The position numbers and the translations under genes were made by a program. Under the pieces are notes generated by a model, which worked only from the letters and a program-made list of their open reading frames with translations, had not been told where the DNA came from and did no database searches. Source: a virus. Taken from it: a stretch of 64,000 nt of DNA. The stretch covers positions 1 to 64,000 of the IMG/VR virus record IMGVR_UViG_3300035158_000183, one strand, 5' to 3'. Each line of letters opens with the position of its first letter. The first letter of the stretch is position 1. Shown here piece by piece: positions 4,634 through 42,300 of the stretch.

Positions 4634-4636
4634 TAG

Positions 4637-7086: not shown

Positions 7087-7119
7087 AAAATACGCTCCCA
7101 ACGGCGAAAGGCGGCGGGG

Positions 7120-7326: not shown

Positions 7327-7351
7327 AAAATACAAACCAAAGGAGAGGAAA

Positions 7352-7878: not shown

Positions 7879-7905
7879 GTGATATCAATCCAAGACATAG
7901 AGGTA

Positions 7906-7978
7906 GCACCTGTAGCTCAGCTGGCAGAGCGTGACGTTGCCAACGTCGAGGCCACGGGTTCGAACCCCGTCAGGTGCT
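7906..7978 (+). tRNA. tRNA-Gly(GCC)
   Basis: GCACCTG/CAGGTGC, T73; TGACG-TTGCCAA-CGTCG; ACGGG-TTCGAAC-CCCGT. Confidence 0.93.
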
Positions 7979-7990
7979 CTGAGGAGACAG

Positions 7991-9388
7991 ATGCCAGATA
8001 TAGAGAAAAATCTGACCGAGTTGGGCAAGAAGGTACCACACCAGCTCAAGGATATAGCCGACCACCTACACAATGAGGGCGGCGAGGCCTATCTTGTAGG
8101 CGGCGCTGTAGTAGACCATCTCCTTGGGCACGAGATCAAGGACTGGGACATAGAGGTATTCGGCCTTAGCTATGAAAACCTGCTAGATATTTTGTCCCAA
8201 TACGGCCACACAGACCTGATTGGTAGTAAGTTCGGTGTGGTTAAACTGGTCGCTGACCTGCTAGACATGGAGTTCACAGTACCCAGGCTAGAGAACAGCA
8301 CTGGCCCTAAGCATCAGGACTTCGATATTCAGCTCATCCCCAGCATATCTGTGGAGCAGGCTGGGCATCGCCGAGACTTCACCATCAACTCCATCTACTA
8401 TGATATCAAGCACGACCTGGTAGTAGATCCCTTTGCGGGAATAGCGGCACTGAAAGCCGGTCTGATCTGTCATATAGATGATGAGACCTTCCCGCAGGAT
8501 CCCTTGAGGGCCTACAGGGCTATACAGTTGTGTGCCCGGAAGGGCAAGACTATCTGTCCTCATACACAGGGCCTGATACGGAGTATGCTGGAAGAGTGCG
8601 CGGCGATTCCGGGAGAAGCTATCTATGGTGAGCTTACCAAATGCTTGATGAAAGCCGAGAAACCCTCGGTCGGATTACAGTTCCTTAAAGGTACACAATT
8701 GATCTACAACCACCCTGAGCTAGCTATTCTGATAGGTGCCAGGCATAGGCCTGACTACCATCCTGAGGGAGATGTCTGGAACCACACCTTGATGGTAATA
8801 GACGAGGCAGCCAGATACCGGGACGAGCTGCCGGAGGAATGGAGGTTAGGGTTCATGTGGGGGATGCTCCTACATGATGTAGGGAAGCCTGCTACATACG
8901 ACCCGGAAACTGGCAGCACTCTGCAGCATGACAAGAAGGGTGAGGCTCCAGCCAGAGCTTGCCTCGGCCAGCTTACACAAGATAAGGATCTTACTGATAA
9001 AGCAGTCTCTATTGTCAGGAGTCACATGCGAGCCCGCTTACTCCTGAAAGCATCACCCCGTAAGGCCGCCTGGAGGCGGCTCCAGAACATCTGTCCTCTG
9101 AATATATTGGCCTATGTGTCCATGTGTGATGAAGATGGCAGGGGTGACCCAAACCAGAGGCTTGGCAAGGATGACCCGGTCTTTAAGAGGTGTACGGAGA
9201 TATATAAGGAGCTTGGCGCCCCAGAGCGGGAGATAAAACCCATCCTTATGGGCCGTCACCTCATAGCTGTCGGACACAAGCCCGGAGTACAGTTTGGGGT
9301 TATGTTAAAGAAAGCTTATGAGTACCAACTTGACGAGGGCTGTGAAGATGTAGATACTCTACTAGAGGTAGCCACTAAGCCGGTGTAG
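7991..9388 (+). CDS. cca: CCA-adding tRNA nucleotidyltransferase with HD domain
   Basis: YLVGGAVVD..KDWDIE, RRDFTINS, DPLRAYR, HPEGDVWNHT..LLHDVGK; start placed after tRNA-Gly (GAGGAG SD). Confidence 0.92.
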   Translation: MPDIEKNLTELGKKVPHQLKDIADHLHNEGGEAYLVGGAVVDHLLGHEIKDWDIEVFGLSYENLLDILSQYGHTDLIGSKFGVVKLVADLLDMEFTVPRLENSTGPKHQDFDIQLIPSISVEQAGHRRDFTINSIYYDIKHDLVVDPFAGIAALKAGLICHIDDETFPQDPLRAYRAIQLCARKGKTICPHTQGLIRSMLEECAAIPGEAIYGELTKCLMKAEKPSVGLQFLKGTQLIYNHPELAILIGARHRPDYHPEGDVWNHTLMVIDEAARYRDELPEEWRLGFMWGMLLHDVGKPATYDPETGSTLQHDKKGEAPARACLGQLTQDKDLTDKAVSIVRSHMRARLLLKASPRKAAWRRLQNICPLNILAYVSMCDEDGRGDPNQRLGKDDPVFKRCTEIYKELGAPEREIKPILMGRHLIAVGHKPGVQFGVMLKKAYEYQLDEGCEDVDTLLEVATKPV

Positions 9389-9451
9389 CTCAATTGGCAG
9401 AGCACCTGATTTGTACCCAGGGGGTTGCAGGTTCAATTCCTGTCGCCGGCC
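9379..9451 (+). tRNA. tRNA-Thr(TGT)
   Basis: GCCGGTG/CGCCGGC; loop TTTGTAC; GCAGG-TTCAATT-CCTGT; overlaps the last 10 nt of cca. Confidence 0.88.
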
Positions 9452-9464
9452 TAAGGAGAAGAAG

Positions 9465-9731
9465 ATGAAAGCATTACCGTTACTGGCTGTTATAACTATA
9501 GCAGGATGTGGCCTAATGGTGGGGAACGACGAGCCGGTTCAGACCCTGCAAGAGGCAGGCTACTCCAACATCAATTGCTATGACTCTCACTGGATCTTCC
9601 CTACCTTCTACGGGTGTGGTGAGCGTGATCACATAGCCTTCGAGTGCACAGCTACCAACCCAGCTGGGGGACATGTAGATGTCACTGTCTGTTCTAGTGC
9701 CACCTTCAAAGGATCGACCATAAGGCACTAG
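9465..9731 (+). CDS. Putative small lipoprotein
   Basis: MKALPLLAVITIAGC lipobox-like signal; AAGGAG SD. Confidence 0.65.
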   Translation: MKALPLLAVITIAGCGLMVGNDEPVQTLQEAGYSNINCYDSHWIFPTFYGCGERDHIAFECTATNPAGGHVDVTVCSSATFKGSTIRH

Positions 9732-9732
9732 C

Positions 9733-9987
9733 ATGCCCCGGCAGAAGACTAAGAAGAAATCCACCCCTAAGAAGGATACTCCCTACAAACAGTGCCAGGT
9801 ATCCCTAGAGGACGTTAAGCATATTGCCTGGATACCCACCAAGTTTGCTAAGGTTGGGAAGGTACTCAGGATTGCAGGCACTGATGGTTATATTGTTGAG
9901 GAAGTGTACGATATTACAAAGACCTGGGAAGAGGTTGAGAAGATGGGGTTCTACCACCTAGTACACCGAGAGGCAACTGACATATGA
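9733..9987 (+). CDS. Hypothetical protein
   Basis: ORF tightly packed between neighbours. Confidence 0.6.
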   Translation: MPRQKTKKKSTPKKDTPYKQCQVSLEDVKHIAWIPTKFAKVGKVLRIAGTDGYIVEEVYDITKTWEEVEKMGFYHLVHREATDI

Positions 9988-10259
9988 AGCACAGTGAGGA
10001 ATTTTCCAAGGAATTCAGGGCACTTATGGCCACCTGTGAGGAGGCTATCAGCAATGTACTGCTGAGCGAGAGCCGAATATCTAAGCACCAGCCCTGGACA
10101 TGGCAGGATGAGCCCAAGATCGGTCACCTTCTGAAGGCCGCCAGACACATCATGACCCATGTCCTTATCACCAATGGACAACAGGAACCTACAGGAGATA
10201 ACCATTTAGATAATGCTATGTGCCGTCTTGTGATGGCCATGACCAGAAAAGGTAGTTGA
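9984..10259 (+). CDS. dATP/dGTP diphosphohydrolase (DUF5664)-like small protein
   Basis: KHQPWTWQ...KAARHI...EPTGDNHLDNAMCRL follows the NW...A.RH...SG..HL.HA pattern. Confidence 0.45.
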   Translation: MKHSEEFSKEFRALMATCEEAISNVLLSESRISKHQPWTWQDEPKIGHLLKAARHIMTHVLITNGQQEPTGDNHLDNAMCRLVMAMTRKGS

Positions 10260-10283
10260 CACACCGCCAAAGCATGTTATTAT
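10256..10283 (+). promoter_or_regulatory. Sigma70-like promoter
   Basis: TTGACA-16 nt-TATTAT with extended -10 TG. Confidence 0.6.
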
Positions 10284-10404
10284 AGTGTGAGAGGTGAATG
10301 AAATGTCTATCTATACAGAATATAGAGTAAGCACAGTCCAAGACATTCCTACCAGTCTGCACACCTCATACCATAATAATTAGTACTGACTGTAGATATA
10401 CTAC

Positions 10405-10476
10405 GGGTCAGTAGCTTAGCGGTCGAGCGCGACGCCGTTAACGTCGGAGGTGTAGGTTCGAATCCTACCTGGCCCG
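10405..10476 (+). tRNA. tRNA-Asn(GTT)
   Basis: GGGTCAG/CTGGCCC, G73; CGACG-CCGTTAA-CGTCG (C at position 33); GTAGG-TTCGAAT-CCTAC. Confidence 0.87.
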
Positions 10477-10489
10477 TCAAGGAGAGAAT

Positions 10490-11080
10490 ATGGGAGTGCC
10501 ACCAGAGAAACCACCGAAGAAATCCTGGAAAGACATGAAACTGCCTGCGGTGACCTGGGAAGAGGTTGAGAAGGCACAAGGCATTTCTTCCTACGCCGCT
10601 GGTGTGACAGGCCCGACAGGCCCGACAGGCCCTATGGAACCAACAGGTGTTACCACTCCCACAGGTCCAGTTGACACCCTATCTAAGGGTATACCAACGG
10701 GCCAGTTATTCTGGTGTCAAGACTGTGAGATGTGGCAGAGGCTGGATCACTCGGGCCCGGTTGGCACCATAGACCTCTGCCCAGGGTGCCATGGAAGCAA
10801 CACTCTTAGGATAGATAAGCTAGCTATCCAAGAGATAAAGAAGATACAGCAGGTCCTCGAGGAGCATTTTGTGACAAAGCCCTTGGAACCTAAGCCATCC
10901 ACCCCATTTGAACGGACGTGGATCGCTGTAGGAGCTGCTGCAATATTAGCACTCTTCCTTCTCATCTATGGCAGCTCCTGGATAGTAGATAATATTAGCA
11001 AAACTGGGGAGCCTGCCCTAGAGGCAGCCGAGCAGGATGAGTTCAGAGATCTAGAGAATACTTGGAGTGAGGAAGAATAA
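10490..11080 (+). CDS. Membrane-anchored hypothetical protein (GPT repeats, Zn-ribbon, TM)
   Basis: TGPTGPTGP, CQDC..CPGC, hydrophobic WIAVGAAAILALFLLIY. Confidence 0.65.
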   Translation: MGVPPEKPPKKSWKDMKLPAVTWEEVEKAQGISSYAAGVTGPTGPTGPMEPTGVTTPTGPVDTLSKGIPTGQLFWCQDCEMWQRLDHSGPVGTIDLCPGCHGSNTLRIDKLAIQEIKKIQQVLEEHFVTKPLEPKPSTPFERTWIAVGAAAILALFLLIYGSSWIVDNISKTGEPALEAAEQDEFRDLENTWSEEE

Positions 11081-11083
11081 TAT

Positions 11084-11157
11084 GCTGGGGTTAGCCGAGT
11101 GGTTTCAGGCGCAGCGTTGTGGCCGCTGTAACACGGGTTCGAACCCCGTACCTCAGC
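11084..11157 (+). tRNA. tRNA-His(GTG) with encoded G-1
   Basis: 8-bp acceptor GCTGGGGT/ACCTCAGC; CAGCG-TTGTGGC-CGCTG; ACGGG-TTCGAAC-CCCGT. Confidence 0.92.
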
Positions 11158-11412
11158 CTAATATACCTCTAGGGGAGGACCTGGCACAGTCGGGCCGGTT
11201 ATATCTGCCTCAACATCTAGTTCAGGCTGATAAAACTCAATAGTTGCAGTCACTTGCGGAAAACCATTGCCTAGATATATGCTAAGGGCCTTAATCTTAC
11301 CAAGCGGAGCACCGGCACAATCAAGGATCTTGGTACCATCCTTAGTGCCATCTGATATAACTTTAACTCTACCGGGTTGCATACACCATTGTATCATATT
11401 TTCTTGTTGCAT
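11158..11412 (-). CDS. Hypothetical protein, paralog of 53015..53461
   Basis: VKVISDGTKDGTKILDCAGAPL..EFYQPELDVE versus IKIKSDGTPQGTYITTTDGAPI..ECFLPELEME. Confidence 0.6.
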   Translation of the reverse strand: MQQENMIQWCMQPGRVKVISDGTKDGTKILDCAGAPLGKIKALSIYLGNGFPQVTATIEFYQPELDVEADITGPTVPGPPLEVY

Positions 11413-11458
11413 TATGTGGTCGGTGGTGTAAAGTAGTAGTTTGAAAGGAGACTACAAT

Positions 11459-12172
11459 ATGCCAGCTAAAAAGAAAACTACCAAGCAGAAGACCGAACTG
11501 GTCTGCATCCTTGATAGGAGCGGGTCCATGGGGTCCATGGCCGAGGAGGCCATTGGCGGCTTCAACAACTTCCTGGAAGAGCAGCAGAAGCTCCCAGGCA
11601 TTGCCAAGCTAACCCTATGCCTCTTTGACAACACCTACCAGCTACCCTACAGTGGTAAGGACGTCAAGAAGGTACAGCCCCTGAACAAGGACACCTACCG
11701 TCCCGGTGGTACCACAGCCCTCCTGGACGCCATTGGCAGGACAGTCAGGGACGTACAGACCAGGCTTGACAAGACCCCGAAGAACCGCAAGCCGGACAAA
11801 GTCATCATGGCCATCCTTACTGACGGTTATGAGAATGCATCCCAGGATTATACCTACGATAAGATCAGCGAGCTGCTCAGGAAACAGCGCGAGGATAATA
11901 ACTGGGAGATTATATACCTAGCAGCTAACCAGGAGTCCTTCGATGTAGGTCAGAGGATGGGTATCGCTGGCGTGGGCGCCTTGAATATAAACCTCGGTGG
12001 CGGTCCTAGGGGGATGAGCGTAGGCTATAACGCACTAACTTCCAGTGTCACCAGATCTAGGCATACCTGTGGGCAGGTCTATGCCAGCAACTGTAGCCTG
12101 GATGCTAGCGACGTAGCCAAGTGGGATACGGACGACGACCAGACAGATGACGGAGACGATATTGAAGAATAA
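11459..12172 (+). CDS. von Willebrand factor A domain protein
   Basis: MIDAS DRSGSM, GTTALLDAIG, ILTDGYENAS. Confidence 0.9.
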   Translation: MPAKKKTTKQKTELVCILDRSGSMGSMAEEAIGGFNNFLEEQQKLPGIAKLTLCLFDNTYQLPYSGKDVKKVQPLNKDTYRPGGTTALLDAIGRTVRDVQTRLDKTPKNRKPDKVIMAILTDGYENASQDYTYDKISELLRKQREDNNWEIIYLAANQESFDVGQRMGIAGVGALNINLGGGPRGMSVGYNALTSSVTRSRHTCGQVYASNCSLDASDVAKWDTDDDQTDDGDDIEE

Positions 12173-12449
12173 TTGGTCCCGGAAGCCGCCCACCCCGCCA
12201 GAGGTCCCGCCATCCGACTGGTATTGGTATTGGGAAGACGGCGAGCCGGAACCATGTATTGTTGAAGTGTGGCCCAAGCGATGGTTAAAGCACTATAAGG
12301 GTCAATGGCACCCTATGCTTATCCAAAGACCACCAGATACGGAGAAGGAAGATGCTACAGACAAGGATGCCAGGCTACAACAGCGAAGGCGAAAAGATAA
12401 GCGTACTGCTCCAAAAGATCCAGCTAAACCTGCTGAGGAAAGTGGATAA
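12147..12449 (+). CDS. Hypothetical protein
   Basis: Trp/Pro-rich ORF in gene run. Confidence 0.5.
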   Translation: MTETILKNNWSRKPPTPPEVPPSDWYWYWEDGEPEPCIVEVWPKRWLKHYKGQWHPMLIQRPPDTEKEDATDKDARLQQRRRKDKRTAPKDPAKPAEESG

Positions 12450-12583
12450 GCTCACCAATTTAGAGAATAGCCAGCAAGTCAAAATGTCCCACGTCGAGCA
12501 GATGGTAGACATGATACACAAGCTAGGCGAAATCAAACCAGCTGGCAAGTACGCAACTTAGACAACCTCCTACCCACGTATCT

Positions 12584-12907
12584 ATGGAGCCTAACATGAG
12601 CTGTCGCAAGATTAAAGACCCTACTAAAGTGAAGAAGACCAAGCTGCCGGAGATCGGGATGAAGGAGGCCCTGTACTCCCATCTGTTTACCACCAGGCAG
12701 CAGAGGGAACACGAGGAGGAAGAGGCTGTCGCCAAGCTTATCCAGGATGGACAGCTGGACCTCCTGAAGGTCAAGGATTACGACTACATGAGTAAGATAG
12801 CCAAGGGCTTGGACTGGAGTATAGGCCGGCTCTTGAAGACAGTAAACAGGATGACAATCATCCTGCCAGAACAGCACACAGAAGGAGAGGAAGATGCAAA
12901 AGGTTAG
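12584..12907 (+). CDS. Hypothetical protein
   Basis: ORF in gene run. Confidence 0.55.
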   Translation: MEPNMSCRKIKDPTKVKKTKLPEIGMKEALYSHLFTTRQQREHEEEEAVAKLIQDGQLDLLKVKDYDYMSKIAKGLDWSIGRLLKTVNRMTIILPEQHTEGEEDAKG

Positions 12908-13265
12908 AGACATGTTCGGCAATTACATTGCCAAGGGTAACTACATTAGCTACCCATGCCGTAAGGGTAGCTCCACTTACATGCGGACAGCCAAGGTCAT
13001 TAACATCAGGGAGAGGAACCTAGATGGTGACAACCCTGAGACAGTCCTGGATGTAGCAGTAGCCATAGCTCCCAGGGACCATGAGCGGAAAGCCAACCCC
13101 AACTGGAAGACCAGGATCCGCAGGACTTGTGTAAGCCGTCACTACAGATCTTCCATTGTGCCTCAGTCCTACATCCAGCACGACAGACGATACAGCTGCC
13201 TGCTGGACTACGAGCCCCCACAGAGGAAGAAGAGCAAGAACGAAAAGCGTTCAGGCAAGTCCTAA
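12894..13265 (+). CDS. Hypothetical protein
   Basis: GGAGAGG SD; overlaps the upstream stop. Confidence 0.65.
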   Translation: MQKVRDMFGNYIAKGNYISYPCRKGSSTYMRTAKVINIRERNLDGDNPETVLDVAVAIAPRDHERKANPNWKTRIRRTCVSRHYRSSIVPQSYIQHDRRYSCLLDYEPPQRKKSKNEKRSGKS

Positions 13266-13403
13266 CATGAAAATATTAGAACCGTGTGCACTCACAATAG
13301 TTTTCCATGCTCCCGAAGGCTATAGCTCTATAGAGCATTGGCTGGAGAGGGTCAACGAGCGCATACCCTCCATGTATGAAGACCTAGCCGAGGAGTTCCT
13401 AAC

Positions 13404-13493
13404 ATGATATACCTAATGGCTGGTATTGTGCTGGCAATGTGTGTATTCCTGGTCTATAAGGCCGTCACCACTAAGCCTAAGCGCAAGAAGTAG
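13404..13493 (+). CDS. Small single-TM peptide (29 aa)
   Basis: MIYLMAGIVLAMCVFLVYKAVTTKPKRKK; AGGAG SD; its TAG ends on tRNA G1. Confidence 0.45.
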   Translation: MIYLMAGIVLAMCVFLVYKAVTTKPKRKK

Positions 13494-13577
13494 GAGGGTT
13501 GGCGGAACGGCAACGCGCCCGGCTCGAACCCGGTGGCCTGGGTAACACCAGTAGGAGTTCGAATCTTCTACCCTCCG
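13493..13577 (+). tRNA. tRNA-Ser(CGA)
   Basis: GGAGGGT/ACCCTCC, G73; loop CTCGAAC; variable arm GGCCTGGGTAACACCAG shared with Ser(GCT). Confidence 0.88.
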
Positions 13578-13588
13578 CAGGAGACCAA

Positions 13589-14200
13589 ATGGCTAAACTA
13601 TATTTTAGATACGGCACTATGAATAGTGGCAAGACACTAAATCTGCTAGCTGTCGCACATAACTATGAGAACAGGCAGACCGAGCTACCAATTAAGAAGA
13701 AGGTGGTGATTGCCAAGCCTGCTGTGGATACTAGATTTGGGAGAGAGCTAGTCCACAGTCGGGCTGGCATTGATAGGGATGCCGATATCCTTCTCCGAGA
13801 TGAGACTAGCATCTACACCATGGTTAATGAGCCACAACAGTATGCCTGTATCCTAGTGGATGAGGCACAGTTTCTAACAGCTGCCATGGTAGACAGCCTT
13901 CGCAAGATCAGCATCAATTTTGACATTCCTGTAATATGTTATGGTTTACGGGCTGATTTCAAGTCACAGCTATTTGAAGGCTCCAAGAGATTGCTCGAGG
14001 TCGCCGACACCATTGAAGAAATCAAGACTGTCTGCACATTCTGTGACCAGAAAGCTACCATGAACATGAAGTACCAGGACGGCAGGGCCGTCGACACGGG
14101 ACCTTCAGTAGAGCTGGGAGCAGAAGAGAAGTACATGCCAGCATGCTGGAACTGCTATAGTACAGCCATTTCATCCAGAGGCATGCCATGGCAACCGTAG
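13589..14200 (+). CDS. tdk: Thymidine kinase
   Basis: YFRYGTMNSGKT, VDEAQFL, YGLRADF, Zn-binding CTFC/CWNC. Confidence 0.95.
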   Translation: MAKLYFRYGTMNSGKTLNLLAVAHNYENRQTELPIKKKVVIAKPAVDTRFGRELVHSRAGIDRDADILLRDETSIYTMVNEPQQYACILVDEAQFLTAAMVDSLRKISINFDIPVICYGLRADFKSQLFEGSKRLLEVADTIEEIKTVCTFCDQKATMNMKYQDGRAVDTGPSVELGAEEKYMPACWNCYSTAISSRGMPWQP

Positions 14201-14252
14201 TAGTTACTTGCCTTATAATGCTCCTCTGGTTATGGATAATTAGTGACCACTA

Positions 14253-14336
14253 GGAGGGTTGCGGGAGCAGTAACCGGCTTGCTTGGAAAGCAAAGGCCTC
14301 GGGAACGGGACGTGGGTGCAAATCCTACACCCTCCG
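14253..14336 (+). tRNA. tRNA-Ser(GGA)
   Basis: GGAGGGT/ACCCTCC, G73; TTGC-TTGGAAA-GCAA; long variable arm; atypical T loop TGCAAAT. Confidence 0.8.
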
Positions 14337-22599: not shown

Positions 22600-22611
22600 G
22601 AAGAGGGAGTG

Positions 22612-23022
22612 ATGGCAAAATTACACTTCATACAAGAGAAGCTACACATACCGGAAGTAGCCACCAAGGAGTGGGGTGAGGAACATATCATCTGCAGGCA
22701 TCCACATGCCTGTAAGGTAATGATACTTAAGCCCGGCTACCAGGTAAGCCTACACTGGCACAGGAAGAAGTCTGAGACATTTGTACTCATCAAGGGACAG
22801 CTTATCATCGAGATGATTACCCGAGAAGGCAAGACATACACACACCACCTGACAGAGGCATACTCCTCTGTAACACTACTCCCTAACACCCCGCATACAT
22901 TTTATTGCCCAGACGGGCAGCTAAAGCCGACTATATTTATGGAGGCTTCTACGAGGGACAGCCCAGATGACAGCTACAGAGTCTATCCCAGCGGGCCAAG
23001 ACCGGCTCCTGATTATAGGTGA
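22612..23022 (+). CDS. Cupin-fold sugar isomerase-like protein
   Basis: KEWGEE, SLHWHRKKSETF, TPHTF, EAST...DSYR. Confidence 0.8.
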   Translation: MAKLHFIQEKLHIPEVATKEWGEEHIICRHPHACKVMILKPGYQVSLHWHRKKSETFVLIKGQLIIEMITREGKTYTHHLTEAYSSVTLLPNTPHTFYCPDGQLKPTIFMEASTRDSPDDSYRVYPSGPRPAPDYR

Positions 23023-23914
23023 CTTGCTAATAGACGAGACGTATTACGTCAGCGTCCCTAAACTCTCCCCAGAGGCCCCAGTCCCCGTTGCTTGCCTCAC
23101 AGGCGGCCCTGTTTGTACACCTGGAGGTGCTGGCCTAGTCGCAGCATTTGCTGCCCGAGAAAATATCCCATCAGTATTTGCTACCTACTGCGATGAGGCC
23201 ACAGCTATGTGGCTACAGCAGACCTTCGAGATCCACACACTCACCTCCGGGCACCACGGCAGACTGGAAAACATCAAGAAGACCAGATATATAGACATGG
23301 CCACCGGCTATCACTTAATCCGGGTCGACAACGACAATATAGCTGACCGACCCAATGAGTGGGCTTACGAGTGCCTCCGTAGGAGCCTAGACCGTGCTTT
23401 CCGTGACTACCACATCCCTATAGTCCTAATAGCAGACTATCGGAAAGGACTCCTTGAGGACGAGGATACTGTATACTGGATCATTCGCCAGGCGCATAAA
23501 CACAGGGCCAAGATATATGTAGACAGCCGGGCTACAGATCTAATTAAATTCACCGGAGTAGACGTACTGAAGCTCAATGACAGTGAATTTTCGTCTGCGA
23601 AGCGCGCTCTCAACGCCTCCCATGAGGGGCAAGTGATGGAAAACCTTGGTGTTTCACGCCTGATAGTGACGAGGGGCGCCGGGGGTGCAGAGCTACATCA
23701 TAAAGGCAGGGCCATAGAGGCCAAGCCAGACCTAACCGGCTTTACAGGTACCCCCGATGTCACCGGGTGCGGGGACATGTTCGGCGTGACATTTTGTAAT
23801 CATTGGGGTATAAAGGATATAGCTCCTGAGGATGCCATTAGAACGGCAGTCCAGAGGGCTACTGAGCTTGCATACGAGCCCATAGGAGAAAGGCTATATG
23901 TCCCTGACGTTTGA
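22967..23914 (+). CDS. Heptose-7-phosphate kinase-like (HldA/RfaE1, PfkB family)
   Basis: IGDLLID, LSPEAPVPV, PGGAG, KTRY..LIRVD, DYRKG, VTRGAGG, DVTGCGD. Confidence 0.88.
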   Translation: MTATESIPAGQDRLLIIGDLLIDETYYVSVPKLSPEAPVPVACLTGGPVCTPGGAGLVAAFAARENIPSVFATYCDEATAMWLQQTFEIHTLTSGHHGRLENIKKTRYIDMATGYHLIRVDNDNIADRPNEWAYECLRRSLDRAFRDYHIPIVLIADYRKGLLEDEDTVYWIIRQAHKHRAKIYVDSRATDLIKFTGVDVLKLNDSEFSSAKRALNASHEGQVMENLGVSRLIVTRGAGGAELHHKGRAIEAKPDLTGFTGTPDVTGCGDMFGVTFCNHWGIKDIAPEDAIRTAVQRATELAYEPIGERLYVPDV

Positions 23915-24114: not shown

Positions 24115-24378
24115 ATGTCAAGGAGTGCACACGCGCAATCCACTTACAAACTAAGAAAATTACCAAGATGCTCCAGATGCAACGTAGAATTTATCCTAGT
24201 CATGGTCAGCTACGCAGACCTGGCCAAACCAGTCTGGGAATGGGAATGCCCAAAATGCCGGAAGACTGTTGCTAGGGAGCTACTACAAGAAGAAACCCCA
24301 CGGAAGGACGAGGCATACATCAGTCAAAGATGTGAAGCACTAAGAAAAGAAGATGGAAAGCGCCGTAGTCGTCGATAA
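24115..24378 (+). CDS. Zn-ribbon protein
   Basis: CSRC...CPKC. Confidence 0.55.
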   Translation: MSRSAHAQSTYKLRKLPRCSRCNVEFILVMVSYADLAKPVWEWECPKCRKTVARELLQEETPRKDEAYISQRCEALRKEDGKRRSRR

Positions 24379-24712
24379 ACTCTGCAGAATTCTTAACGAA
24401 GCCGAGGTAACACAGCAGGACATGGTCCCTGTGCTCTCCCAATTGTTATTTTCTATTGGGGCCTCGTTGGAGAATTGTGGCAAAGTTACGTCTGAACAGG
24501 TGCTACGGCAGTATGCTACCAACCCCACTCTAGGCAATGCCTTGATGGCCCAAGCCCTCCAAATGAAGGAGACGTGGGTAACCGAGGAAAGGGAAGACGA
24601 TGACCGTGACACCGCAGAAGACATTCCGAGAGAGGCAGATCGAGGGGAGACTGCCACTACCGTTCGAGCTGTACAAGGGAGTGAAGGGGAAGCTTGGAGC
24701 GATGAGGCTTAA
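24353..24712 (+). CDS. Hypothetical protein
   Basis: ORF in gene run. Confidence 0.55.
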   Translation: MESAVVVDKLCRILNEAEVTQQDMVPVLSQLLFSIGASLENCGKVTSEQVLRQYATNPTLGNALMAQALQMKETWVTEEREDDDRDTAEDIPREADRGETATTVRAVQGSEGEAWSDEA

Positions 24713-25169
24713 GCTGAAGAGAGCATATACCGACCTAACGGATGACCGGGGACTAGGCGGCTGTGTCTTCCTAGAGATGGCCCCAGCTGTTGGGCCTAAT
24801 AACTACGACTGGAAGAACGGTAAAATAGTGATAGCACTAGGCATCACGGATATCCCCAAGATAATCCTATACCTCCGTAGTTCAGGACACCCACTGTTCC
24901 AGAAGGACGACGGCCAGCTCAAGATATACCATGACAGAGGAGCCGGAACTGCTGCAAAAGGTCAGGACACAACATCACTGAATTTCAACAAGCCTCCTGA
25001 CCGAAATAATTTCTTTCTGCAAGCGTACCAAAAGCGCGGTAACGTTAGTAAACAGGCCACGGTATCAATCTCCCCTGATGAAGCCATTGCCATGGGTACA
25101 CTGCTTCAAGCTGCTATCCCCATCATTTTAGCGTGGGACCTACCGCCTGAGGGACCAGCTAACAGCTAA
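24600..25169 (+). CDS. Whirly-domain-like ssDNA-binding protein
   Basis: YKG..KGKLGAM, GCVFLEMAPAVGPNNYDW, IYHD, PPD.NNFFL, ISPDEA...AIPIILAW are collinear with plant Whirly motifs. Confidence 0.72.
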   Translation: MTVTPQKTFRERQIEGRLPLPFELYKGVKGKLGAMRLKLKRAYTDLTDDRGLGGCVFLEMAPAVGPNNYDWKNGKIVIALGITDIPKIILYLRSSGHPLFQKDDGQLKIYHDRGAGTAAKGQDTTSLNFNKPPDRNNFFLQAYQKRGNVSKQATVSISPDEAIAMGTLLQAAIPIILAWDLPPEGPANS

Positions 25170-27714: not shown

Positions 27715-30700
27715 ATGCAAACTCGTAAGGTCAATGTAGAAATAACCACCCCAGACGGCGATGTAGTATTCAGCAAGCCCGACTTTGAGGTACCCGAGTT
27801 CTGGTCTGATAGGGCAGCCACAATAGTGGCCTCCAAGTACGCCACGGATGACGAGCAGAGCGCCCTGCAGGTCATTGGCAGAGTTGCAGCCCAAATTACC
27901 AAGTGGGGAGTAGCTCAAGGCTACTTTGGACAGGACGTCTCCGAGTGGCACGAAGACACAGTGCTCTCATCGTGCAAAGATAAACATAACTGTGAGGTAT
28001 GTGACTTCTACGGAAGCCTCATGGATATTCTTATCAACCAGAGAGCTAGCTTTAACAGCCCTGTATGGTTTAATTGTGGTGTCCCCGAGAATTCTCCACA
28101 AATGTCGGCGTGTTTTGTCATCCCTGTCGAGGATAACATGGAGAGTATCCTGAATCACGCTGTGGTGGAAGGCATGATCTTTAAGAGTGGCTCCGGTGCT
28201 GGGGTGAACGTTAGCAAGCTCAGGGCACAGGGAGAGAAGCTCTCTAATAAGGGCGAGGCCTCCGGCCCTGTCAGCTTTATGGAAGGCTGGGACGCCTTCG
28301 CCGGTATTATTAAGAGCGGAGGTAAGGTCCGGAGAGCAGCCAAACTAGTCTGCATGGATGTAGACCATCCGGACATCTTTAAGTTCATTGAGTGTAAACA
28401 GCATGAGGAGAGGAAGGCCAAGATTCTAATTGCCAACGGCATAGACCCAGAGGAGGCCTACCATACAGTCTTCTTCCAGAATACCAACCATTCCATTAGA
28501 ACTACAGATGAGTTTATGAATATTATTCGGAATAAGCGTGATGAATGGGCGCTGGTTAACAGAGGAGACAGCAAGCTTACTTATACTTCAGCCAGGAAGA
28601 TTTTACGCGCAGCTGCTGAGGTAGCCTGGGAGACTGGAGATCCGGGCATACAGTTTCACGACCGAATGAACAGTGATAACCCAGTACCTTCCATGGGGGA
28701 AATTCGGAGCACAAACCCCTGCTTTGCAGGAGATACAAGAATATCGACACCTTACGGCTACAGAAGAATTATCGACCTTGTTGCATTAGCGACAACAGAA
28801 GGCATAATGACTGACGTCCATACTGAGGATGGTATTATAAGCACACCGATAGCCTTCATGGCGACAGGAAAGAATGACATCCTCAGAGTAGAGCTGTCTG
28901 ACGGAAGGGTAATAAAGACCACGCCCAATCACAACTGGTTCATCAGCGGTCAAAAGATTCCAGCCTGCGAACTTGAACCTGGAATGCCTATAGAGTTGAT
29001 ACACCAGAGGCGACCCAAAAGACGTATCTCAGCAGACGAACAACAACTTAGTGTGAAAGAGGATATCAATGATTACAGAACACCAGGAACACATTTTATT
29101 GAAGATGCAAACTTCCCAGCCACGCTAACAGCTGAGTTCGCAGAAATACTAGGACACCTTACAGGTGATGGTTACATATCAGATGGAGAACAATACTCAG
29201 TTGGATGGATCTTTGGGACACATCCAGATGAATCAGAAAAGCTACACGATAGATATAAAACGGTCTTAAACAAATATCTGCCCATAAATACTACAACCAA
29301 CACTAATGGATGTAGGGTACTCCGTTACAATAGACGGCCTGTGCTGAACTACTTTGTAGACTTGGGGTTTTCTCGATGTAAGGCACATGAGAAGAGAGTG
29401 CCTGAGATCTTCTTCAAAGCCGAACCGCCAATTCTGAAACAATACCTGTGCGGGTATTTTGGTGCTGACGGGACAGTTTATGGGAAAGAAGAGGAGGGGT
29501 CCTGCTCAGTAAACTGTGCTTCAACATCCCCAGAATTGTTACGAGATATCCAGCTTCTTCTTGATGTCTTTAACATAAGATCCTGGATCAAAAAGATGAA
29601 AGATCCAGGCCAAATAACATTCGCCGACGGCAAGACATACAATACTCGCGCAACATATAGACTAAGCATCGATCCAGAGGATGTCAGGAGTTTTCATGAA
29701 CTTATTGGATTTAGTGTAGACTATAAGAACAACAGGCTTGCCTCCCTATTAGAATGTCGAAAGACAGTCAAACCACGACGCAAACAAGTTCATATTGTTT
29801 CTGTGGTAAAACAGAAAAGACAAGAAATAACTTACAATCTTACAGAGCCTATAAACAATTTAGTCTTTGCCAACGGGGTTCTTATAGCACAGTGTTCAGA
29901 ATTTAGTGCGGTAGACAATTCAAGTTGCAACTTAGCCAGTCTAAACCTAGTAAAGTACATGAATCCTGAAGCTGAGGATGGTTTTGATGATGCGCTGTTC
30001 CGCAAGGACATCCACACGATGATCACTGCCATGGATATTATGGTAGAGGCAGCTGAATATCCTACGGAGGACATCAGGAAGACCACAATAGCTACCAGGC
30101 CATTAGGGTTGGGCTTCACCAATCTGGGAGCATACCTAATGTTAATTGGGTTGCCATATGACTCAGAAGAAGCCAGAGAAACAGCTTCAAAGATCACTAA
30201 ACTAATGTCTTACTGCGCATGTGAGCGGAGCATAGAATTAGCCAAGAAGCTAGGGCCATTTGAGAAGTTTGAAGAGAACAAAGAGACCTGTCTAGAGATC
30301 ACTGAACGTATAGCAGGTGCTCCTAGAGGACTAAAGACGCATGGCCTCCGCAACTCACAGCTAACTCTGTTAGCTCCGACGGGCACGATCTCATTTATGA
30401 TGGACTGTGATACTACTGGTATAGAGCCGCTGTTTGCCTTAAGGAGCACGAAACAGCTGGCTGGCGGCGGAACTCTAGAACTGACCCCAGCATGTGTACA
30501 GAAATCATTTGAGAACCTCGGCGACTATGTACAGGACAATAGGCCACCGAACAAGGATATTTCAGAACACATATCAGATCTGCCGGAAGCCAAACGAGCC
30601 ATCTTCAAGACAGCCAATGAGATCCGCTGGCGAGACCACATACTTATGATGGCAGCCTGCCAGAAGCACCTGAATGGTGCCATTAGTAAGTGTGTGACAG

Positions 30701-32676
30701 GAGATACCCTGATACTGACGCACGAAGGTATTATGCCAATTGGCAGCTTTTATAACGGAGAAACCTCAGATACATTTAGGGAAGAGGATATTGTCCTTGG
30801 CTCTATTTCTAAGCCGCAGAAAGCAGACTTGTTTTACTATGGGGGGGAAAGAGAGACTCTCAAGATTACTCTGAGGGACGGCAGAACGATAGAAGGAACT
30901 CCTAACCATAAGCTTAAGGTGGCGAACAGCAAAGGATACACCTGGAAACGCCTAGATGAAATTACAGGAGACGACTACGTGGCCATCAAACTTGGATCGG
31001 ATATCTGGGCACAAGAAACACTAGAGATTGGTTTTACGCCCCCAAAGCTGTACGGACGTCAGAAAAGAGTTAGTATACCACAGACTCTAGACAGAGACCT
31101 GGGATGGCTATTCGGAGCATATATTGCTGATGGGAATACAACCCCGAGTAACTGGACAATACATATAACTAACAATAATGGACAGGTACTATCCAAGATA
31201 GCGAATATAGTGGAAAGTAGATTTGGAATAGGAGCTAGACTCTCCGTGGATAAGCGCAGAGGGACACAAGCTGTACACATCAGCTCAAAAACTCTGTGTA
31301 TGTTGTTCGACTGGCTGGGGTGCGGAGGTAATGCTGAAACTAAAGAGATACCCTGGTCAATCTTACAGTCGCCAAAAGAAGTCGTACAATCATTTGTTAG
31401 TGGGCTCTGGCTAGATGGATATGTGAGAAATGCAAACGCGACTGTAGCAATTTGTTTGAAGTCTGAGAAAATAATCCGCCAACTCCAAGTGATAATGAAC
31501 AACTTTGGTCTACGTGCTAATATAATAACGAAGCACAATAAAGAATATAATAGGGACTTCTTTGAGCTACTTATTCACGGAGAAGACCTCATGAAATTCT
31601 CGAAACTGTTCACTCTGGACGATCCCTGGAAACAAGAGACACTGGATGTACACTGCAAGGTTCTACCGGAGAGAAAACACAATAGAATCTATTCAGATGT
31701 AGTGCCCTGTTATAGACAGGAAATAAAACAGATCGTATTAGAGAAAGGTACTCGATCTAAGTATACATCAGTGTTTGATCACAGAACACAAAATCTCTCA
31801 TGGCAGCTAGTTAACGATATCTACCTTGAGTCGTTCGACGAAGTAACTAAGCATGCACCTGGCTTGCATGAAATATGCTACGACAATATCCACTTCGCAA
31901 GAGTTACCCACAAAGAAGACGCGGAGGCAGAGGTGTACGACTTCCAAGTTCCAGAGAATCATGCTTTTATCGGCAACGGAATTATCAACCACAACACCAT
32001 CAACATACCAACCGATGCTACAGTGGAAGACGTAGAAGAAGCCTACATGATGGCTTGGAAGGAGGGCCTGAAGTCTGTGGCTGTCTACAGAGACGGTTCC
32101 AAGGACATGCAACCCCTGACAGCTGCACCAGAAGATACAGATGAGGAAGAGCCAGATGAGGACCAGTGGATGGCCTTTAGGCGCCGGCTCCCGGAGACAA
32201 GGCAGTCCATCACTCACAAGTTTAATGTGGGAGGGCTGGACGGATACCTCACAATAGGAATCTATGATGATGGCAGCCCCGGTGAGATATTTATCCGGAC
32301 CCAGAAGCAGGGTTCTACCATGCAGGGTGTCTTGGATGCCTTTGCCACAGCCGTATCGTATGCTCTACAGTATGGAGTGCCACTTGAGGTCCTGGTCGGC
32401 AAGTTCGTCGGCTCCAAGTTTGAGCCAGCAGGCTTCACAACCAACGAAGACATCAAGCTTACTACATCCATAATGGACTACATATTTAGGTGGTTAAGTA
32501 TCCAATTCATAGATGAGGAGGATGAAGACGATAGCGAGCCAAGCAGGCCGTCTATGCCACCTAATAGCAAGGTCCAGTTCGATGGACCGCCTTGCCCTAA
32601 GTGCCAGAGTGTTACTGGCAGGAGCGGGCACTGCTACCTGTGCCCACAGTGTGGAGAGACGACTGGATGTAGTTGA
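27715..32676 (+). CDS. nrdJ: Class II (B12-dependent) ribonucleotide reductase with two inteins
   Basis: FNSPVWFN, SACF, SGPVSFM, TNP|CSE, CNLASLNL, RPLGLG, APTGTISF, ISK|TIN, YRDGSK; C-terminal TSCPD-like region and Zn ribbon. Confidence 0.95.
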   Translation: MQTRKVNVEITTPDGDVVFSKPDFEVPEFWSDRAATIVASKYATDDEQSALQVIGRVAAQITKWGVAQGYFGQDVSEWHEDTVLSSCKDKHNCEVCDFYGSLMDILINQRASFNSPVWFNCGVPENSPQMSACFVIPVEDNMESILNHAVVEGMIFKSGSGAGVNVSKLRAQGEKLSNKGEASGPVSFMEGWDAFAGIIKSGGKVRRAAKLVCMDVDHPDIFKFIECKQHEERKAKILIANGIDPEEAYHTVFFQNTNHSIRTTDEFMNIIRNKRDEWALVNRGDSKLTYTSARKILRAAAEVAWETGDPGIQFHDRMNSDNPVPSMGEIRSTNPCFAGDTRISTPYGYRRIIDLVALATTEGIMTDVHTEDGIISTPIAFMATGKNDILRVELSDGRVIKTTPNHNWFISGQKIPACELEPGMPIELIHQRRPKRRISADEQQLSVKEDINDYRTPGTHFIEDANFPATLTAEFAEILGHLTGDGYISDGEQYSVGWIFGTHPDESEKLHDRYKTVLNKYLPINTTTNTNGCRVLRYNRRPVLNYFVDLGFSRCKAHEKRVPEIFFKAEPPILKQYLCGYFGADGTVYGKEEEGSCSVNCASTSPELLRDIQLLLDVFNIRSWIKKMKDPGQITFADGKTYNTRATYRLSIDPEDVRSFHELIGFSVDYKNNRLASLLECRKTVKPRRKQVHIVSVVKQKRQEITYNLTEPINNLVFANGVLIAQCSEFSAVDNSSCNLASLNLVKYMNPEAEDGFDDALFRKDIHTMITAMDIMVEAAEYPTEDIRKTTIATRPLGLGFTNLGAYLMLIGLPYDSEEARETASKITKLMSYCACERSIELAKKLGPFEKFEENKETCLEITERIAGAPRGLKTHGLRNSQLTLLAPTGTISFMMDCDTTGIEPLFALRSTKQLAGGGTLELTPACVQKSFENLGDYVQDNRPPNKDISEHISDLPEAKRAIFKTANEIRWRDHILMMAACQKHLNGAISKCVTGDTLILTHEGIMPIGSFYNGETSDTFREEDIVLGSISKPQKADLFYYGGERETLKITLRDGRTIEGTPNHKLKVANSKGYTWKRLDEITGDDYVAIKLGSDIWAQETLEIGFTPPKLYGRQKRVSIPQTLDRDLGWLFGAYIADGNTTPSNWTIHITNNNGQVLSKIANIVESRFGIGARLSVDKRRGTQAVHISSKTLCMLFDWLGCGGNAETKEIPWSILQSPKEVVQSFVSGLWLDGYVRNANATVAICLKSEKIIRQLQVIMNNFGLRANIITKHNKEYNRDFFELLIHGEDLMKFSKLFTLDDPWKQETLDVHCKVLPERKHNRIYSDVVPCYRQEIKQIVLEKGTRSKYTSVFDHRTQNLSWQLVNDIYLESFDEVTKHAPGLHEICYDNIHFARVTHKEDAEAEVYDFQVPENHAFIGNGIINHNTINIPTDATVEDVEEAYMMAWKEGLKSVAVYRDGSKDMQPLTAAPEDTDEEEPDEDQWMAFRRRLPETRQSITHKFNVGGLDGYLTIGIYDDGSPGEIFIRTQKQGSTMQGVLDAFATAVSYALQYGVPLEVLVGKFVGSKFEPAGFTTNEDIKLTTSIMDYIFRWLSIQFIDEEDEDDSEPSRPSMPPNSKVQFDGPPCPKCQSVTGRSGHCYLCPQCGETTGCS
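28720..29892 (+). mobile_element. Intein 1 in NrdJ with LAGLIDADG homing endonuclease (391 aa, ends in Gln)
   Basis: TNP|CFAGDT...TTPNH...LGHLTGDG...LCGYFGADG...ANGVLIAQ|CSEF. Confidence 0.92.
30691..31995 (+). mobile_element. Intein 2 in NrdJ with LAGLIDADG homing endonuclease (435 aa)
   Basis: ISK|CVTGDT...GTPNH...FGAYIADG...GLWLDG...GNGIINHN|TIN. Confidence 0.93.
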
Positions 32677-34229: not shown

Positions 34230-36323
34230 ATGAGTCCGAAAATGTCGGAGGCTCTCGGGATAGTTATCTCGACAATTGAAAAACAATTCGGCAAAGGTAC
34301 AGTCCAGCGGCTTACCGATAAGGCATCCGCTGAGCCAGACAACGTCATCCGTAGCGGTTCCATAGCCCTGGATAGTGCTCTGGGGGTAGGTGGCTACCGC
34401 AAGGGAAGGATCGTAGAGCTGTTCGGCCCTGAAATGAGCGGCAAGACCACGCTAGGCCTCCACGCCGTAGTGTGTTGTCAAAAGGCCGGAGGTGTCGCAG
34501 CGTACATAGACGTAGAGCATGCTCTAGACCCGCTATACGCAACCAGTCTGGGTGTCGACCTGGACAGCCTGCTGGTGTCGCAGCCTGATACTGCAGAGCA
34601 GGCTCTACAGATAGCTGATATCATGGCCAGGTCAGGAGAAGTCAGCCTAATCGTGCTCGACTCGGTGGCAGCCCTGGTACCACAGAAGGAACTCGAGGGT
34701 GAGATGGGAGATCAGCATGTGGGGCTACAAGCCAGGCTGATGAGTCAGGCCATGAGGAAGCTGACCGGCTCTCTCAGCAGCTCCAACTGCACCATCATCT
34801 TCACCAACCAGATCAGGATGAAGATAGGCGTCATGTTTGGGTGCTTCTCCTATCGGACCAAGATACATCTAGCAGATGGCACAACAGAAGATATCGGAAA
34901 GATCGTAAATCAAAGACTTCCGCTAGAAGTTCTCTCATACAATGCAGAGACAAAACAAATAGAACCAAAGAAAATTACTAAATGGTTTGACAATGGCACC
35001 ACAAAAGAATACCTGCAAATCAAATCCCAGAGAGCCGTAGGCAATGGAGTTAACTTCATTGAAGTGACACCAAACCATTTGATCTTTACTCCTGAGGAGG
35101 AAAAATTTGCCAAAGACTTATCTGCTGGCCAACAAGTCTTAACTAAAGGTCAGCTCATTCTAAATGAAGATCAAATGCAGCTAGCTATTGGCTCAATTTT
35201 AGGGGATGGCAGCTTAAGAAGCAATGGTATAAACACACAGCTTAGGATAGGGCACGGTCCTAATCAAACAGAATACTGCAAACATAAACAATCATTCTTT
35301 GGAAAGAGTGTTGGTTGGTCAGGCGAAAATTCTAAGGGAGGATGGAGCTTTGACCTACATCCCTCATATGATTTAACAGAAATTTTCGAGGAGTCATACT
35401 CTAAGTCTGGACGAACTATATCACCGAAACTTCTCAAGTTGCTTAGCCTACAATCAGTAGCAGTATGGTACATGGATGACGGCACATTCAGTGGCCACTA
35501 TAAAAGATGGGGCAACGGCAAAAGTTCTATTAGTGTAAAAAAATATTCCTGGGAAGATATCGCCAAACTAACTGATAGGCTTGTAGAACTTGGCTTGCCA
35601 GAACCTAGAGTAGATAAACACAAAAGACTAACCTGGCATGGGGAGGCCAGTTATAGGTTTCAAAAGATGCTTGCGCCGAATATCTTTTCCAGCATGAAAT
35701 ACAAGATTCATCCATCTCTAAGAGAGACACCAGAAGAAGAAAGACAAATATTCCAAACACATACAGAGAGCAAGCTTATTTTGGTCCCAACAACGATTAC
35801 TGATATTCAAGCCATAACAAAACATGGAAAGAAGTTTGATATTGAAGTAGAAGGTAATCACAATTACTTTGCTGGGGGGATGCTAGTACACAACTCCCCG
35901 GAGGTAACCAGTGGTGGCAACGCCCTGAAATTCTATGCCAGCCAGAGATTGGACATCAGGCGGATTGGCCAGATTAAGGACAAGGACAAGGTCCTAGGCA
36001 ATCGGACCAGGGTGAAGGTCGTGAAGAACAAGCTGGCCCCGCCGTTCAAAGAAGCAGAGTTCGACATCCGCTTCGGCATCGGTGTCGACCAGGTAGCCGA
36101 GATATTGGATATTGGCGTAGATGACGGAATTATTGAGAAGTCAGGTGCCTGGTATAGTTACAAGGATAACAAGATAGCTCAAGGGAAAGAAAATGCTGCC
36201 CAGTATCTCAGGGATAACCCGGACATCCAGAAGGAGATACACCAGCAGCTAATGGAACTGAGAGGTCTAGAATGTGCGACAAAGACAAGTGGGGACCAGG
36301 AATCGAGCGAATCAGAGAGCTAA
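34230..36323 (+). CDS. recA: RecA recombinase with intein
   Basis: [46 protein letters not shown]. Confidence 0.96.
34842..35894 (+). mobile_element. Intein in RecA with LAGLIDADG endonuclease (351 aa)
   Basis: GVMFG|CFSY...VTPNH...IGSILGDG...WYMDDG...MLVHN|SPE. Confidence 0.93.
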
Positions 36324-39308: not shown

Positions 39309-42300
39309 ATGAGTAAATTCATACACCTACATACCCATTCAGATTACTCCCCCCTGGACGGGGTCCAGAGTGTCACTCAAATTGCTGAGAAGGCTGCTAA
39401 GTTAGGCATGCATGCCGTTGCTCTGACTGACCACGGCAAGTGTGCTGGTCTGCTACAGTTTAAGAAAGCCTGCGAGGAAAACAAGGTCAAGCCCATATAC
39501 GGCCTAGAGGCTTTCATCTCTCCTAGGGAACACACCCTGAGAGCTAAGGTGGATGAGCATAAGACCTCCTATCACCTGACTCTCCTAGCTAAGAATACGG
39601 CAGGTCTCAGGAACCTCTTCAGGCTGTCCTCAATCGGCTGGAAGGAAGGATTCTACTACAAGCCCAGAGTGGATGTAGAGACGCTCAGAAAGCACTCTGA
39701 AGGCCTTGCGGCACTCTCTGGGTGCGGGTCAGGCCGAGTAGCTATGATGCTAATGTGGGGACGGGCCGAATCTGCCTTGAGACATGCCAGAGAACTACAG
39801 AGTATCTGGAAGGATGACTTCTATATTGAGGTTCAGAACCACGGACTGGACTGGCAGATACCTCTGAAGAGTATGCTATTCGAGCTGGCCCAGACTGTAG
39901 ACATACCGCCAGTCATCACCCAAGACTCTCACTACTCTGATAGGGAAGATGCAGACCTGCATAGGGCCATATGTAAGATGCTAGCGGGAGATCTAGAATT
40001 CGTTGGCAGTGACCTGTATTTCAAGAGCTACGATGAAATGTGTAAGATGTTCGAACCGGAAGAATATCCTGCACTTGACACTACCAAGGAAATAGCTGAT
40101 AAGTGTAACTGCAACTGGGAGTATAACCGAACTATATGGCCAGTGTTTGATCTGCCGGAGGGAAAGACAGCCGATGACGAACTCAGGGACAAGACACACG
40201 CAGGATTTCATAACAGATTTGGAGAGGGTACAGAAGAGTATCGACAGAGAGTTGAATACGAACTCCGAACTATCGAGAAGATGGGTTTCGCAACTTACTT
40301 CCTGGTCGTTGCAGATTTCATTGATTATGCAAAGTCTCAAGGCATCCCGGTTGGACCTGGCCGAGGATCAGGGGCTGGATCGCTTGTCTGCTACTGTCTG
40401 CGGATTACCGAGATAGATCCTATCAAATATGGTCTGTATTTTGAGAGATTTCTGAACCCTAACAGGGTCAGTCTGCCTGACTTGGACATTGACTTCTGCA
40501 AGCAGCGGAGGGACGAGGTAATCCAGTATGTCAGGGACAAGTACGGTGAAGACAAGGTCGCACAGATCGGCACGTTCGCAGCGTTCAAACCTAGAGGGAG
40601 CCTGCGGAGCTTCGCCAGGGTGCTAGGTCACCCGGTTAGTGTAGGAGACAAGCTAGCTGGTATGGTTCCGCCAGACGTAGCCGGTAAGTCTCTCACATGG
40701 GAGGAAGTCATTGAGGCTGTTCCAGACCTGGAGGCTACGGATTATCCCGTTGTGGTGGAATCCGCCCAGAAAGCTGAAGGCCTGAAGAGCCAAGCTGGGG
40801 TCCACGCAGCTGGTGTAGTAATCGCTGATAGCGAACTGATGTCGCAGGTACCGCTGTTCCTGGGCAAGGGCAACGAGGTGGCCACTCAGTTCGATATGCA
40901 TGACGTGGAGGACATCGGCCTAGTCAAGTATGACTTCCTAGCACTGAAGAATCTCACTGTAATTGATATGACAGTTAAGCTGGCCAAGGATATACAGGGG
41001 ATCGATATAGATATCAATAATATAGATGAACACGACGAGGAAGTGTTCAAGAATGTTTTTCAGAAGGGAAGACTGGATGGAGTATTTCAGTTTGAGACTT
41101 CATCAGGCTTTAGAGATCTCTGCGTCAAGGTCAAGCCACAATCTATCGACGACCTTGCAGTTATCACTGCCCTGTTCCGTCCAGGACCGCTTGGGACCGG
41201 CCTGGTCAACAGATATGTCGAAGGTCGAGGTGGTGGAGAGGTTGAATACCTCACGCCTGAACTCGAACCCATGCTGGCCACAACCTACGGAGTTATGTGC
41301 TTGCCGAAGGGGACCCAGATAGAAACGCCGCATGGTATCATGCCTATCGAGGATATTATACCCGGACAGGTTATTTATGCATCAGATGGACATAGAATCT
41401 GGGGAGCAGAGGTAGCACGGAGCCACTCTAGCATCAAACGTACCCTAACATTTACGTTATCAGATGGCAGGACAATCACATCTTCTGGTGACCATGCATG
41501 GCTAACTGCAGACGGGGACCGTCAGGCAATTGAGCTTGTCAAGCGTACGGGCAACCGACTTTCTGGTCCAGCCGAGCGATCTGGCTCGGTGCTGTTTAGT
41601 AGATGGCCAACAGATATTGGGAGCGGGTCGGTCGATCTAAAAAGCCAGGCCTACATCCTGGGACTGCTGATCGGCGACGGCGAGCTGAAGCCCGGGACTA
41701 AAGTCATAACCTGCGGCACGGAAGAACAGGCCAAGTGGGTCGCAAAGCAAATGGCTACTGTGTTTGGTGGAGAACCCAAGTGGTATCAAAATACCCGGGC
41801 ATGGTATGCATACGTCAAGTTCAATACAGCACCCAACAGATCTCCGCTAACGGAGTTCCTAGATTCAGCGTTTGGGAAGGACCAGTGGATCAGTAAATCT
41901 GGCACCAAACGACTTCCACGGGACTTCCTTGACTACAGCTACCAGACCAGCATAGAGCTGGTAAGAGGATTATGGGATGCCGACGGGCACTACGGGCACA
42001 GACTAATATATTACCGCTCAATATCCATAGGGCTATTAGAAGACATTAGAGACCTGCTAGCATCGTTAAGAATTTCTTCAGTAGTTAGAAACAATTACTT
42101 GTATGTAGTAGATCGGCATGCATTCTGCCACAAGATAACTCCTAAACTTCCAGGGAAGTTGTTCCGCTGCCAGCCTGACTGGTCTTACTATCCCGCAGTG
42201 CCGACAAAGGTGTTGCGGGCAGCTTTGGATGAGAGAGAACTCAAGTACGAAAAGCCTGAGCACAAGAAACAGCTACAGCGCCGGCTTCGTGGGGCAGGGA

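Follow-up and report, generated by a model that had tools for sequence, protein, structure and literature searches.

The stretch of DNA analysed here (the window) comprises 64,000 nucleotides, the first 64 kb of the 174,034-bp virus record IMGVR_UViG_3300035158_000183 of IMG/VR, and contains a gene of the Whirly family (PF08536) with a small open reading frame (ORF) overlapping its start from upstream (Table 1). The Whirly frame is open for 189 codons, counted from the first possible start codon, and follows a purine run that resembles a Shine-Dalgarno sequence. Two antisense ORFs, at 24340-24657 and 24962-25093, are mechanical, the conserved frame being that of the plus strand. An earlier note, made from the sequence alone, had read the gene as a full-length viral Whirly, a single-stranded DNA (ssDNA) binder, on the basis of six motifs. 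All six are present in the order given there, YKGVKGKLGAM, GCVFLEMAPAVGPNNYDW, LGITDI, IYHD, PPDRNNFFL and ISPDEA..AIPIILAW, and the plant motifs that the note had named are seen in the solved potato proteins, whose counterparts in the PDB alignment are FKGKAAL, GMVMLQFAPAAGVRQYDW, LSVTEI, FFHD, LPDGSGHFF and VTKAEF..MPYLLGW.

The profile search that had been suggested gives a clear result: HMMER scores the window protein at 48.4 bits (E 1.1e-12, profile positions 30-133 of 136) against PF08536, whose curated gathering cut-off is 23 bits, and a six-frame search finds the family again, as one copy in the genome. In PDB, phmmer ranks StWhy2 first (E 2.7e-7, residues 14-181), followed by p24/PBF-2 and AtWHY1-3, while a profile built from 25 phage homologues reaches E 1.1e-11 and matches Whirly entries exclusively. 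A search of PHROGs with the protein returned no family. By its sequence, the product is a true Whirly-family protein, the match lying far beyond chance. That plant or algal DNA had been mis-assembled into a phage contig, or that the ORF had arisen by chance, has a negligible probability: the gene sits co-directionally within a 174-kb phage contig with a gene order kept in relatives, its identity to plant Whirlies is merely 21-28%, a transit peptide is absent, and 45 close and about 200 distant short homologues exist. Synteny and divergence together refute such an artefact.

We modelled the protein with AlphaFold2 from a 25-row alignment (mean predicted local distance difference test score (pLDDT) 80.7, predicted template modelling score 0.75). 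The model has the element order ββββ-α-ββββ-α, the first strand starting about 20 residues after the N-terminus and the C-terminal tail spanning 9 residues. Foldseek against PDB places eleven plant Whirly chains on top (E 3e-10 to 5e-9, template modelling scores 0.6-0.74), then trypanosome MRP1/2 and then PUR-alpha, indicating that the predicted two-repeat ββββ-α fold is closest to solved Whirlies. Among the shape clusters of the ESM Atlas, a chlorophyte Whirly cluster comes nearest; unnamed ones come next, two of which are mostly viral.

A four-copy model scores 0.92, compared to 0.00 for the best control, this being the model's own confidence, in which solved Whirly tetramers may have been memorised. 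Its runs share at least 84% of contacts with a partner pLDDT of at least 86, and the predicted interface is formed by two helices (82-99 and 158-183) and the N-terminal segment. In the calibration of such complex models, 20 of 30 solved homo-pairs pass, as opposed to 1 of 23 single chains. Because Whirly tetramers have already been solved, the pass indicates likeness rather than proof, and the tetramer is a modelled one. Sequence, predicted fold and predicted tetramer lend support to the claim of a full-length Whirly in a phage.

Residues conserved in non-plant and plant proteins alike are Y25, K26, G27, A34, G54, F57, A61, Y69, D70, W71, K75, A79, L80, L92, H111, D112, G121, E161, P174 and W179. 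Most of these positions lie in strands, away from the predicted tetramer interface, and would fit a nucleic-acid-binding surface. The YKG sequence is kept, and the position of K67, the second lysine of KGKAAL and a switch for the 24-mer (PMC3245945), is V28 here; the residue varies among phage members, a 4-residue insertion comes after it, and the window protein, with K67 replaced, has no KGKAAL-type motif. Algal and Marchantia Whirly-like proteins likewise lack it (PMC9070903), so that the motif marks a higher-plant subgroup and not the whole family.

An index of 5.8 billion proteins holds 45 homologues with 49-67% identity, all PF08536 and either unnamed or 'hypothetical', on contigs of up to 198 kb. 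An exhaustive HMMER search of 1.84 billion representatives yields 216 clusters at E<=1e-3, of which 83 reach E<=1e-10; nearly all have a length of 150-200 residues, too short for a transit peptide, and the highest-ranking plant cluster, from Sphagnum, comes at about rank 145 (E 5e-6). Metagenomes thus hold about 200 short-Whirly clusters at 50% identity. A search of IMG/VR gave two loci. No relative was found in 50,697 GenBank phage records by tblastn of the protein or megablast of 10 kb, a set from which records near the window's genome may be excluded, nor in genomes of 185,579 prokaryote species by close-family alignment, which used two peptide patterns and could miss distant cellular members. 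BFVD includes a UniProt entry automatically named 'Whirly transcription factor [uncultured Caudovirales phage]', and one relative (P0071) bears that name at JGI too. The same relative and P0100 (clade L018) represent a large Whirly subclade in which a zinc-ribbon-like CxxC...CxxC segment is inserted between strands two and three. One close homologue (P0015) lies on a 4.5-kb contig labelled 'Candidatus Thorarchaeota archaeon' by NCBI, probably a phage contig binned into an archaeal metagenome-assembled genome (MAG).

A phylogeny, also suggested by the note, was built with IQ-TREE under LG+C20+F+G4 (posterior mean site frequency) from 83 rows, with hand-thinned non-plant representatives and fragments below 145 residues excluded; land plants make up most of its 15 plant rows, and the taxon of a few is unknown. 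The plant sequences group together in a single clade among the phage sequences (support 100/99) on a long stem of 1.34 changes per column, joining P0176/P0177, P0131 and P0193 at a support of only 84/85. The window protein, which carries no N-terminal transit peptide, falls outside the plant clade, in a separate clade with support 100/99, and a quick 157-row tree agrees. The non-plant proteins have a median pairwise identity of 31% and the sampled plant proteins one of 46%; between the two groups the median is 25%. The tree is unrooted and therefore shows neither the direction of transfer nor a phage origin.

Table 1 Features of the Whirly locus and of the host genome; positions refer to the window unless stated otherwise.
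Feature	Position	Strand	Description	Basis
tRNA cluster	4454-14336		11 tRNAs mixed with small ORFs	
CCA-adding enzyme	7931-9388		phage enzyme	
Cupin sugar-isomerase-like and PfkB-like kinase genes	22609-23914		just upstream of the Whirly pair	
Small helical ORF	24353..24712	+	directly upstream of Whirly; homologous part about residues 1-85	
Shine-Dalgarno-like purine run (GAGGA...AGGGA)	24584..24594	+	5-11 nt before the Whirly ATG	read from sequence; consensus resemblance only
Whirly-family gene	24600..25169	+	189 residues, isoelectric point 9.5, no transit peptide, no acidic tail	ORF, Pfam PF08536, PDB match, models
Ribonucleotide reductase (RNR), large subunit	27715-32676		apparently interrupted by an intein/homing-endonuclease insert	
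RecA	34230..36323	+	true PF00154, split by a LAGLIDADG intein	PF00154 and PHROG recombinase/LAGLIDADG matches
DnaE-like polymerase	39309-43883		apparently interrupted by an intein/homing-endonuclease insert	
Single-strand-binding protein (SSB) candidate	169730-170347 of the genome, outside the window		205 residues, isoelectric point 5.1	sub-threshold PF00436 match and model

The genome (CheckV completeness 91%) has nearly all genes on the plus strand and encodes rIIA/rIIB, an ATP-dependent ligase, 11 tRNAs, a CCA-adding enzyme, an intein-bearing RNR, RecA, an intein-bearing DnaE-like polymerase and a primase-helicase, in agreement with the phage setting that the note had assumed. Whirly lies at the border of the nucleotide-metabolism and replication block. 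RecA, about 9 kb downstream, is recognised through its two exteins (PF00154, 301 and 91 bits, 34251-36086), and insert-bearing genes are also seen in related contigs, there in RNR, RecA and PolA. The cupin and PfkB-like genes upstream are joined by a CTP-transferase-like gene in relatives, which suggests a nucleotide-sugar pathway conserved in related phages. The ORFs downstream of Whirly gave nothing in Pfam or PHROGs; one of 176 residues has an Atlas model that resembles a flavodoxin-type α/β fold at low confidence. An annealase adjoining Whirly was considered and rejected: Pfam detects no Rad52, RecT, ERF or Sak match beside it or elsewhere in the genome.

This neighbourhood is conserved. 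Nine other Whirly contigs all look phage-like, with co-directional small ORFs and genes for amidase, SLT, M24 peptidase, SpoVG, ClpP, intein-bearing RNR, RecA, and DnaE or PolA. In 7 of the 10 contigs, window included, the distance from Whirly to RecA is about 10 kb or less, and the other three end too soon to tell. Its offset is +6.5 and +9 kb in two IMG/VR records, +9 kb in the 199-kb contig of P0145, +8.4 kb in P0091 and +7.8 kb in P0099. In the 195-kb PolA-type NCBI MAG contig of P0176 (L005:6611-8480), only 31 nt separate the end of RecA from the Whirly gene that follows it, whose product is one of the closest non-plant relatives of the plant clade; this adjacency is the one independent rearrangement that keeps RecA and Whirly together. 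We propose that RecA would be the functional partner of Whirly.

The small ORF upstream is also kept. In six other contigs, homologues of 90-114 residues stop at the Whirly start or run past it; these contigs span the window clade, the clade with the zinc-ribbon insert and the P0145 clade, and the homologues have in common the motif SIGASLE..Y..NPTLGNALMAQ. The homologous part of the window ORF reaches to about 24600; the stop that relatives have at the Whirly start is lost, adding about 37 acidic residues and creating a 113-nt overlap with Whirly. Searches of Pfam, PHROG, PDB and the Atlas gave no informative match, returning only designed helical repeats (PDB) and unnamed viral clusters (Atlas). 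We regard the ORF as a putative partner of Whirly.

To the earlier note, the protein could act as an SSB or as a recombination cofactor. The genome encodes, outside the window, an SSB candidate that is its sole match to the Pfam SSB family PF00436 (15.8 bits, below threshold). The model of this ORF (pLDDT 65.8) matches bacterial and mitochondrial SSBs with the oligonucleotide/oligosaccharide-binding (OB) fold across the top 40+ PDB rows (E 1e-6 to 4e-5), its sequence ends in the acidic tip ...DGVDDDPI, and its close homologues among the 5.8 billion proteins are three, none annotated. Both the OB fold and the acidic tip, which Whirly lacks, are thus found in the 205-residue ORF, by model and by sequence, and the phage very probably encodes a conventional SSB, which would make Whirly a second single-strand binder and not the sole SSB. 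That Whirly is the main replicative SSB of the phage, its fold doing the job of an OB-fold SSB, gp32 or gp2.5, is consequently unlikely in our judgement: its place at the edge of the nucleotide-metabolism/replication block, the lack of any gp32-family match in the genome and the sub-threshold score of the sole PF00436 match speak for such a role, while the separate ORF with its SSB-like model and typical acidic C-terminal tail, and the basic character of Whirly without an acidic docking tail, speak against it. Given the probable OB-fold SSB with its acidic tail, the cofactor half of the note's proposal holds up better and the SSB half less well.

We consider it reasonably probable that the protein binds ssDNA as a tetramer, in an accessory role alongside the phage RecA and SSB. 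The basic 189-residue domain with two ββββ-α repeats would most likely assemble through its two helices into a homotetramer, as the models predict, and may bind single-stranded nucleic acid on its β-sheet faces. Bound in this way, Whirly could act as an accessory factor in RecA-dependent recombination, repair or recombination-primed replication of phage DNA. A parallel can be proposed with plant organelles, which contain SSB as well as Whirlies and where Whirlies promote strand exchange by RecA; according to a 2026 preprint, organellar RecAs are stimulated in this reaction by Whirlies and not by canonical mitochondrial SSBs (10.64898/2026.10.24.761589).

Several observations weigh against this proposal. 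The co-occurrence with RecA is not independent evidence, because most contigs have one common gene order, and large phages of such a kind may carry RecA anyway. The identification of the SSB depends on a model of mediocre quality (pLDDT 65.8, from a 4-row alignment) and on a sub-threshold Pfam score. Plant-like higher-order assembly of the phage Whirly is doubtful, and the Whirly-fold relatives MRP1/2 and phage ChmC bind RNA. The last point leads to a reading in which the protein chiefly binds RNA (mRNA, tRNA or intron RNA) in the manner of ChmC, MRP1/2 or the RNA roles of plant WHY1. We regard it as rather unlikely, since in sequence and structure the protein is clearly nearer to the ssDNA-binding plant Whirlies than to MRP1/2, ChmC has βββ-α repeats and does not resemble Whirlies in sequence, the genes conserved around Whirly belong to DNA metabolism and the phage is, as far as seen, not a nucleus-forming one.

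A function in host takeover or counter-defence appears quite improbable. Whirly would then compact the nucleoid as plant WHY1 does, or sequester the ssDNA that retron, defence-associated reverse transcriptase (DRT) or abortive infection (Abi) systems make or sense; plant Whirlies do act as nucleoid-architectural proteins (PMC9070903), and phage SSBs are known to trigger retron and DRT defences. Nothing specific in the locus hints at such a function, and the pairing of the two genes and their location next to RNR and RecA persist over deep clades, as expected for core DNA metabolism. An accessory ssDNA binder acting with RecA and SSB remains our preferred reading; a large group of uncultured phages would thereby gain a third fold for single-strand binders in replication and recombination, and small, tag-free Whirlies without transit peptide, available with their cognate RecA and SSB, offer a tractable system for the stimulation of RecA strand exchange.

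The non-plant Whirlies are far more diverse than the plant clade, and every long contig examined looked phage-like; they are a concrete candidate source for the organellar proteins. Tentatively, and as a possibility on which we would not insist, plant and algal Whirlies may descend from a gene of a large RecA-encoding phage, acquired once by an ancestor of the green lineage, with the Whirly-RecA partnership of plant organelles inherited from phages and the upstream ORF serving as a previously unseen Whirly cofactor. If a phage origin is true, Whirlies would be one more of the phage-derived proteins that maintain organelle DNA, like Twinkle and the T-odd-like RNA polymerase.

As the note had remarked, Whirlies are usually described as specific to the green lineage: in the literature up to late 2026 they are called unique or specific to plants and traced back to the Chloroplastida ancestor (PMC9070903, PMC11359715, PMC11135702). 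Our literature search found no paper on phage members of PF08536; as far as we found, the phage family is already present in databases and has no account in the literature, and the window protein adds a member to a known family, in a class of host where it was not expected. Among phage proteins, we found a Whirly fold described only for ChmC, from nucleus-forming jumbo phages (PhiPA3 gp61, PhiKZ gp67, Goslar gp176), a homotetramer that binds single-stranded nucleic acid, prefers RNA and has no sequence similarity to Whirlies (PMC11077065). The window protein resembles it as a phage-encoded Whirly-like fold with a predicted homotetramer and a putative affinity for single-stranded nucleic acid. 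ChmC differs in its βββ-α repeats, its disordered N/G-rich tail, its preference for RNA and its action at the phage nucleus, whereas the window protein is a Whirly at the sequence level, from a different phage type, with four-stranded repeats and a 9-residue tail in its model (Chimallin and PhuZ were not searched for).

Trypanosome MRP1/MRP2 and PUR-alpha, of the PC4-like/Whirly-like superfamily, have the same general two-repeat fold, and MRP1/2 form whirligig tetramers. Canonical SSBs (OB fold PF00436, T4 gp32, T7 gp2.5) presumably have a role in common with the window protein, the coating of ssDNA in replication and recombination, but their fold is unrelated and Whirly lacks their acidic C-terminal docking tail. 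The closest known system is that of the plant organellar Whirlies (StWHY1/PBF-2 p24, StWHY2 and AtWHY1-3; PF08536; PDB 1l3a, 3n1h, 4koo, 4kop and 4koq). Compared to these, the window protein is phage-encoded and of low identity, has neither transit peptide nor C-terminal extension, does not conserve K67, carries a 4-residue insertion in the first hairpin and is accompanied by a small upstream partner ORF. Plant organelles keep Whirly alongside an SSB, which would be the same arrangement as in the phage of the window.
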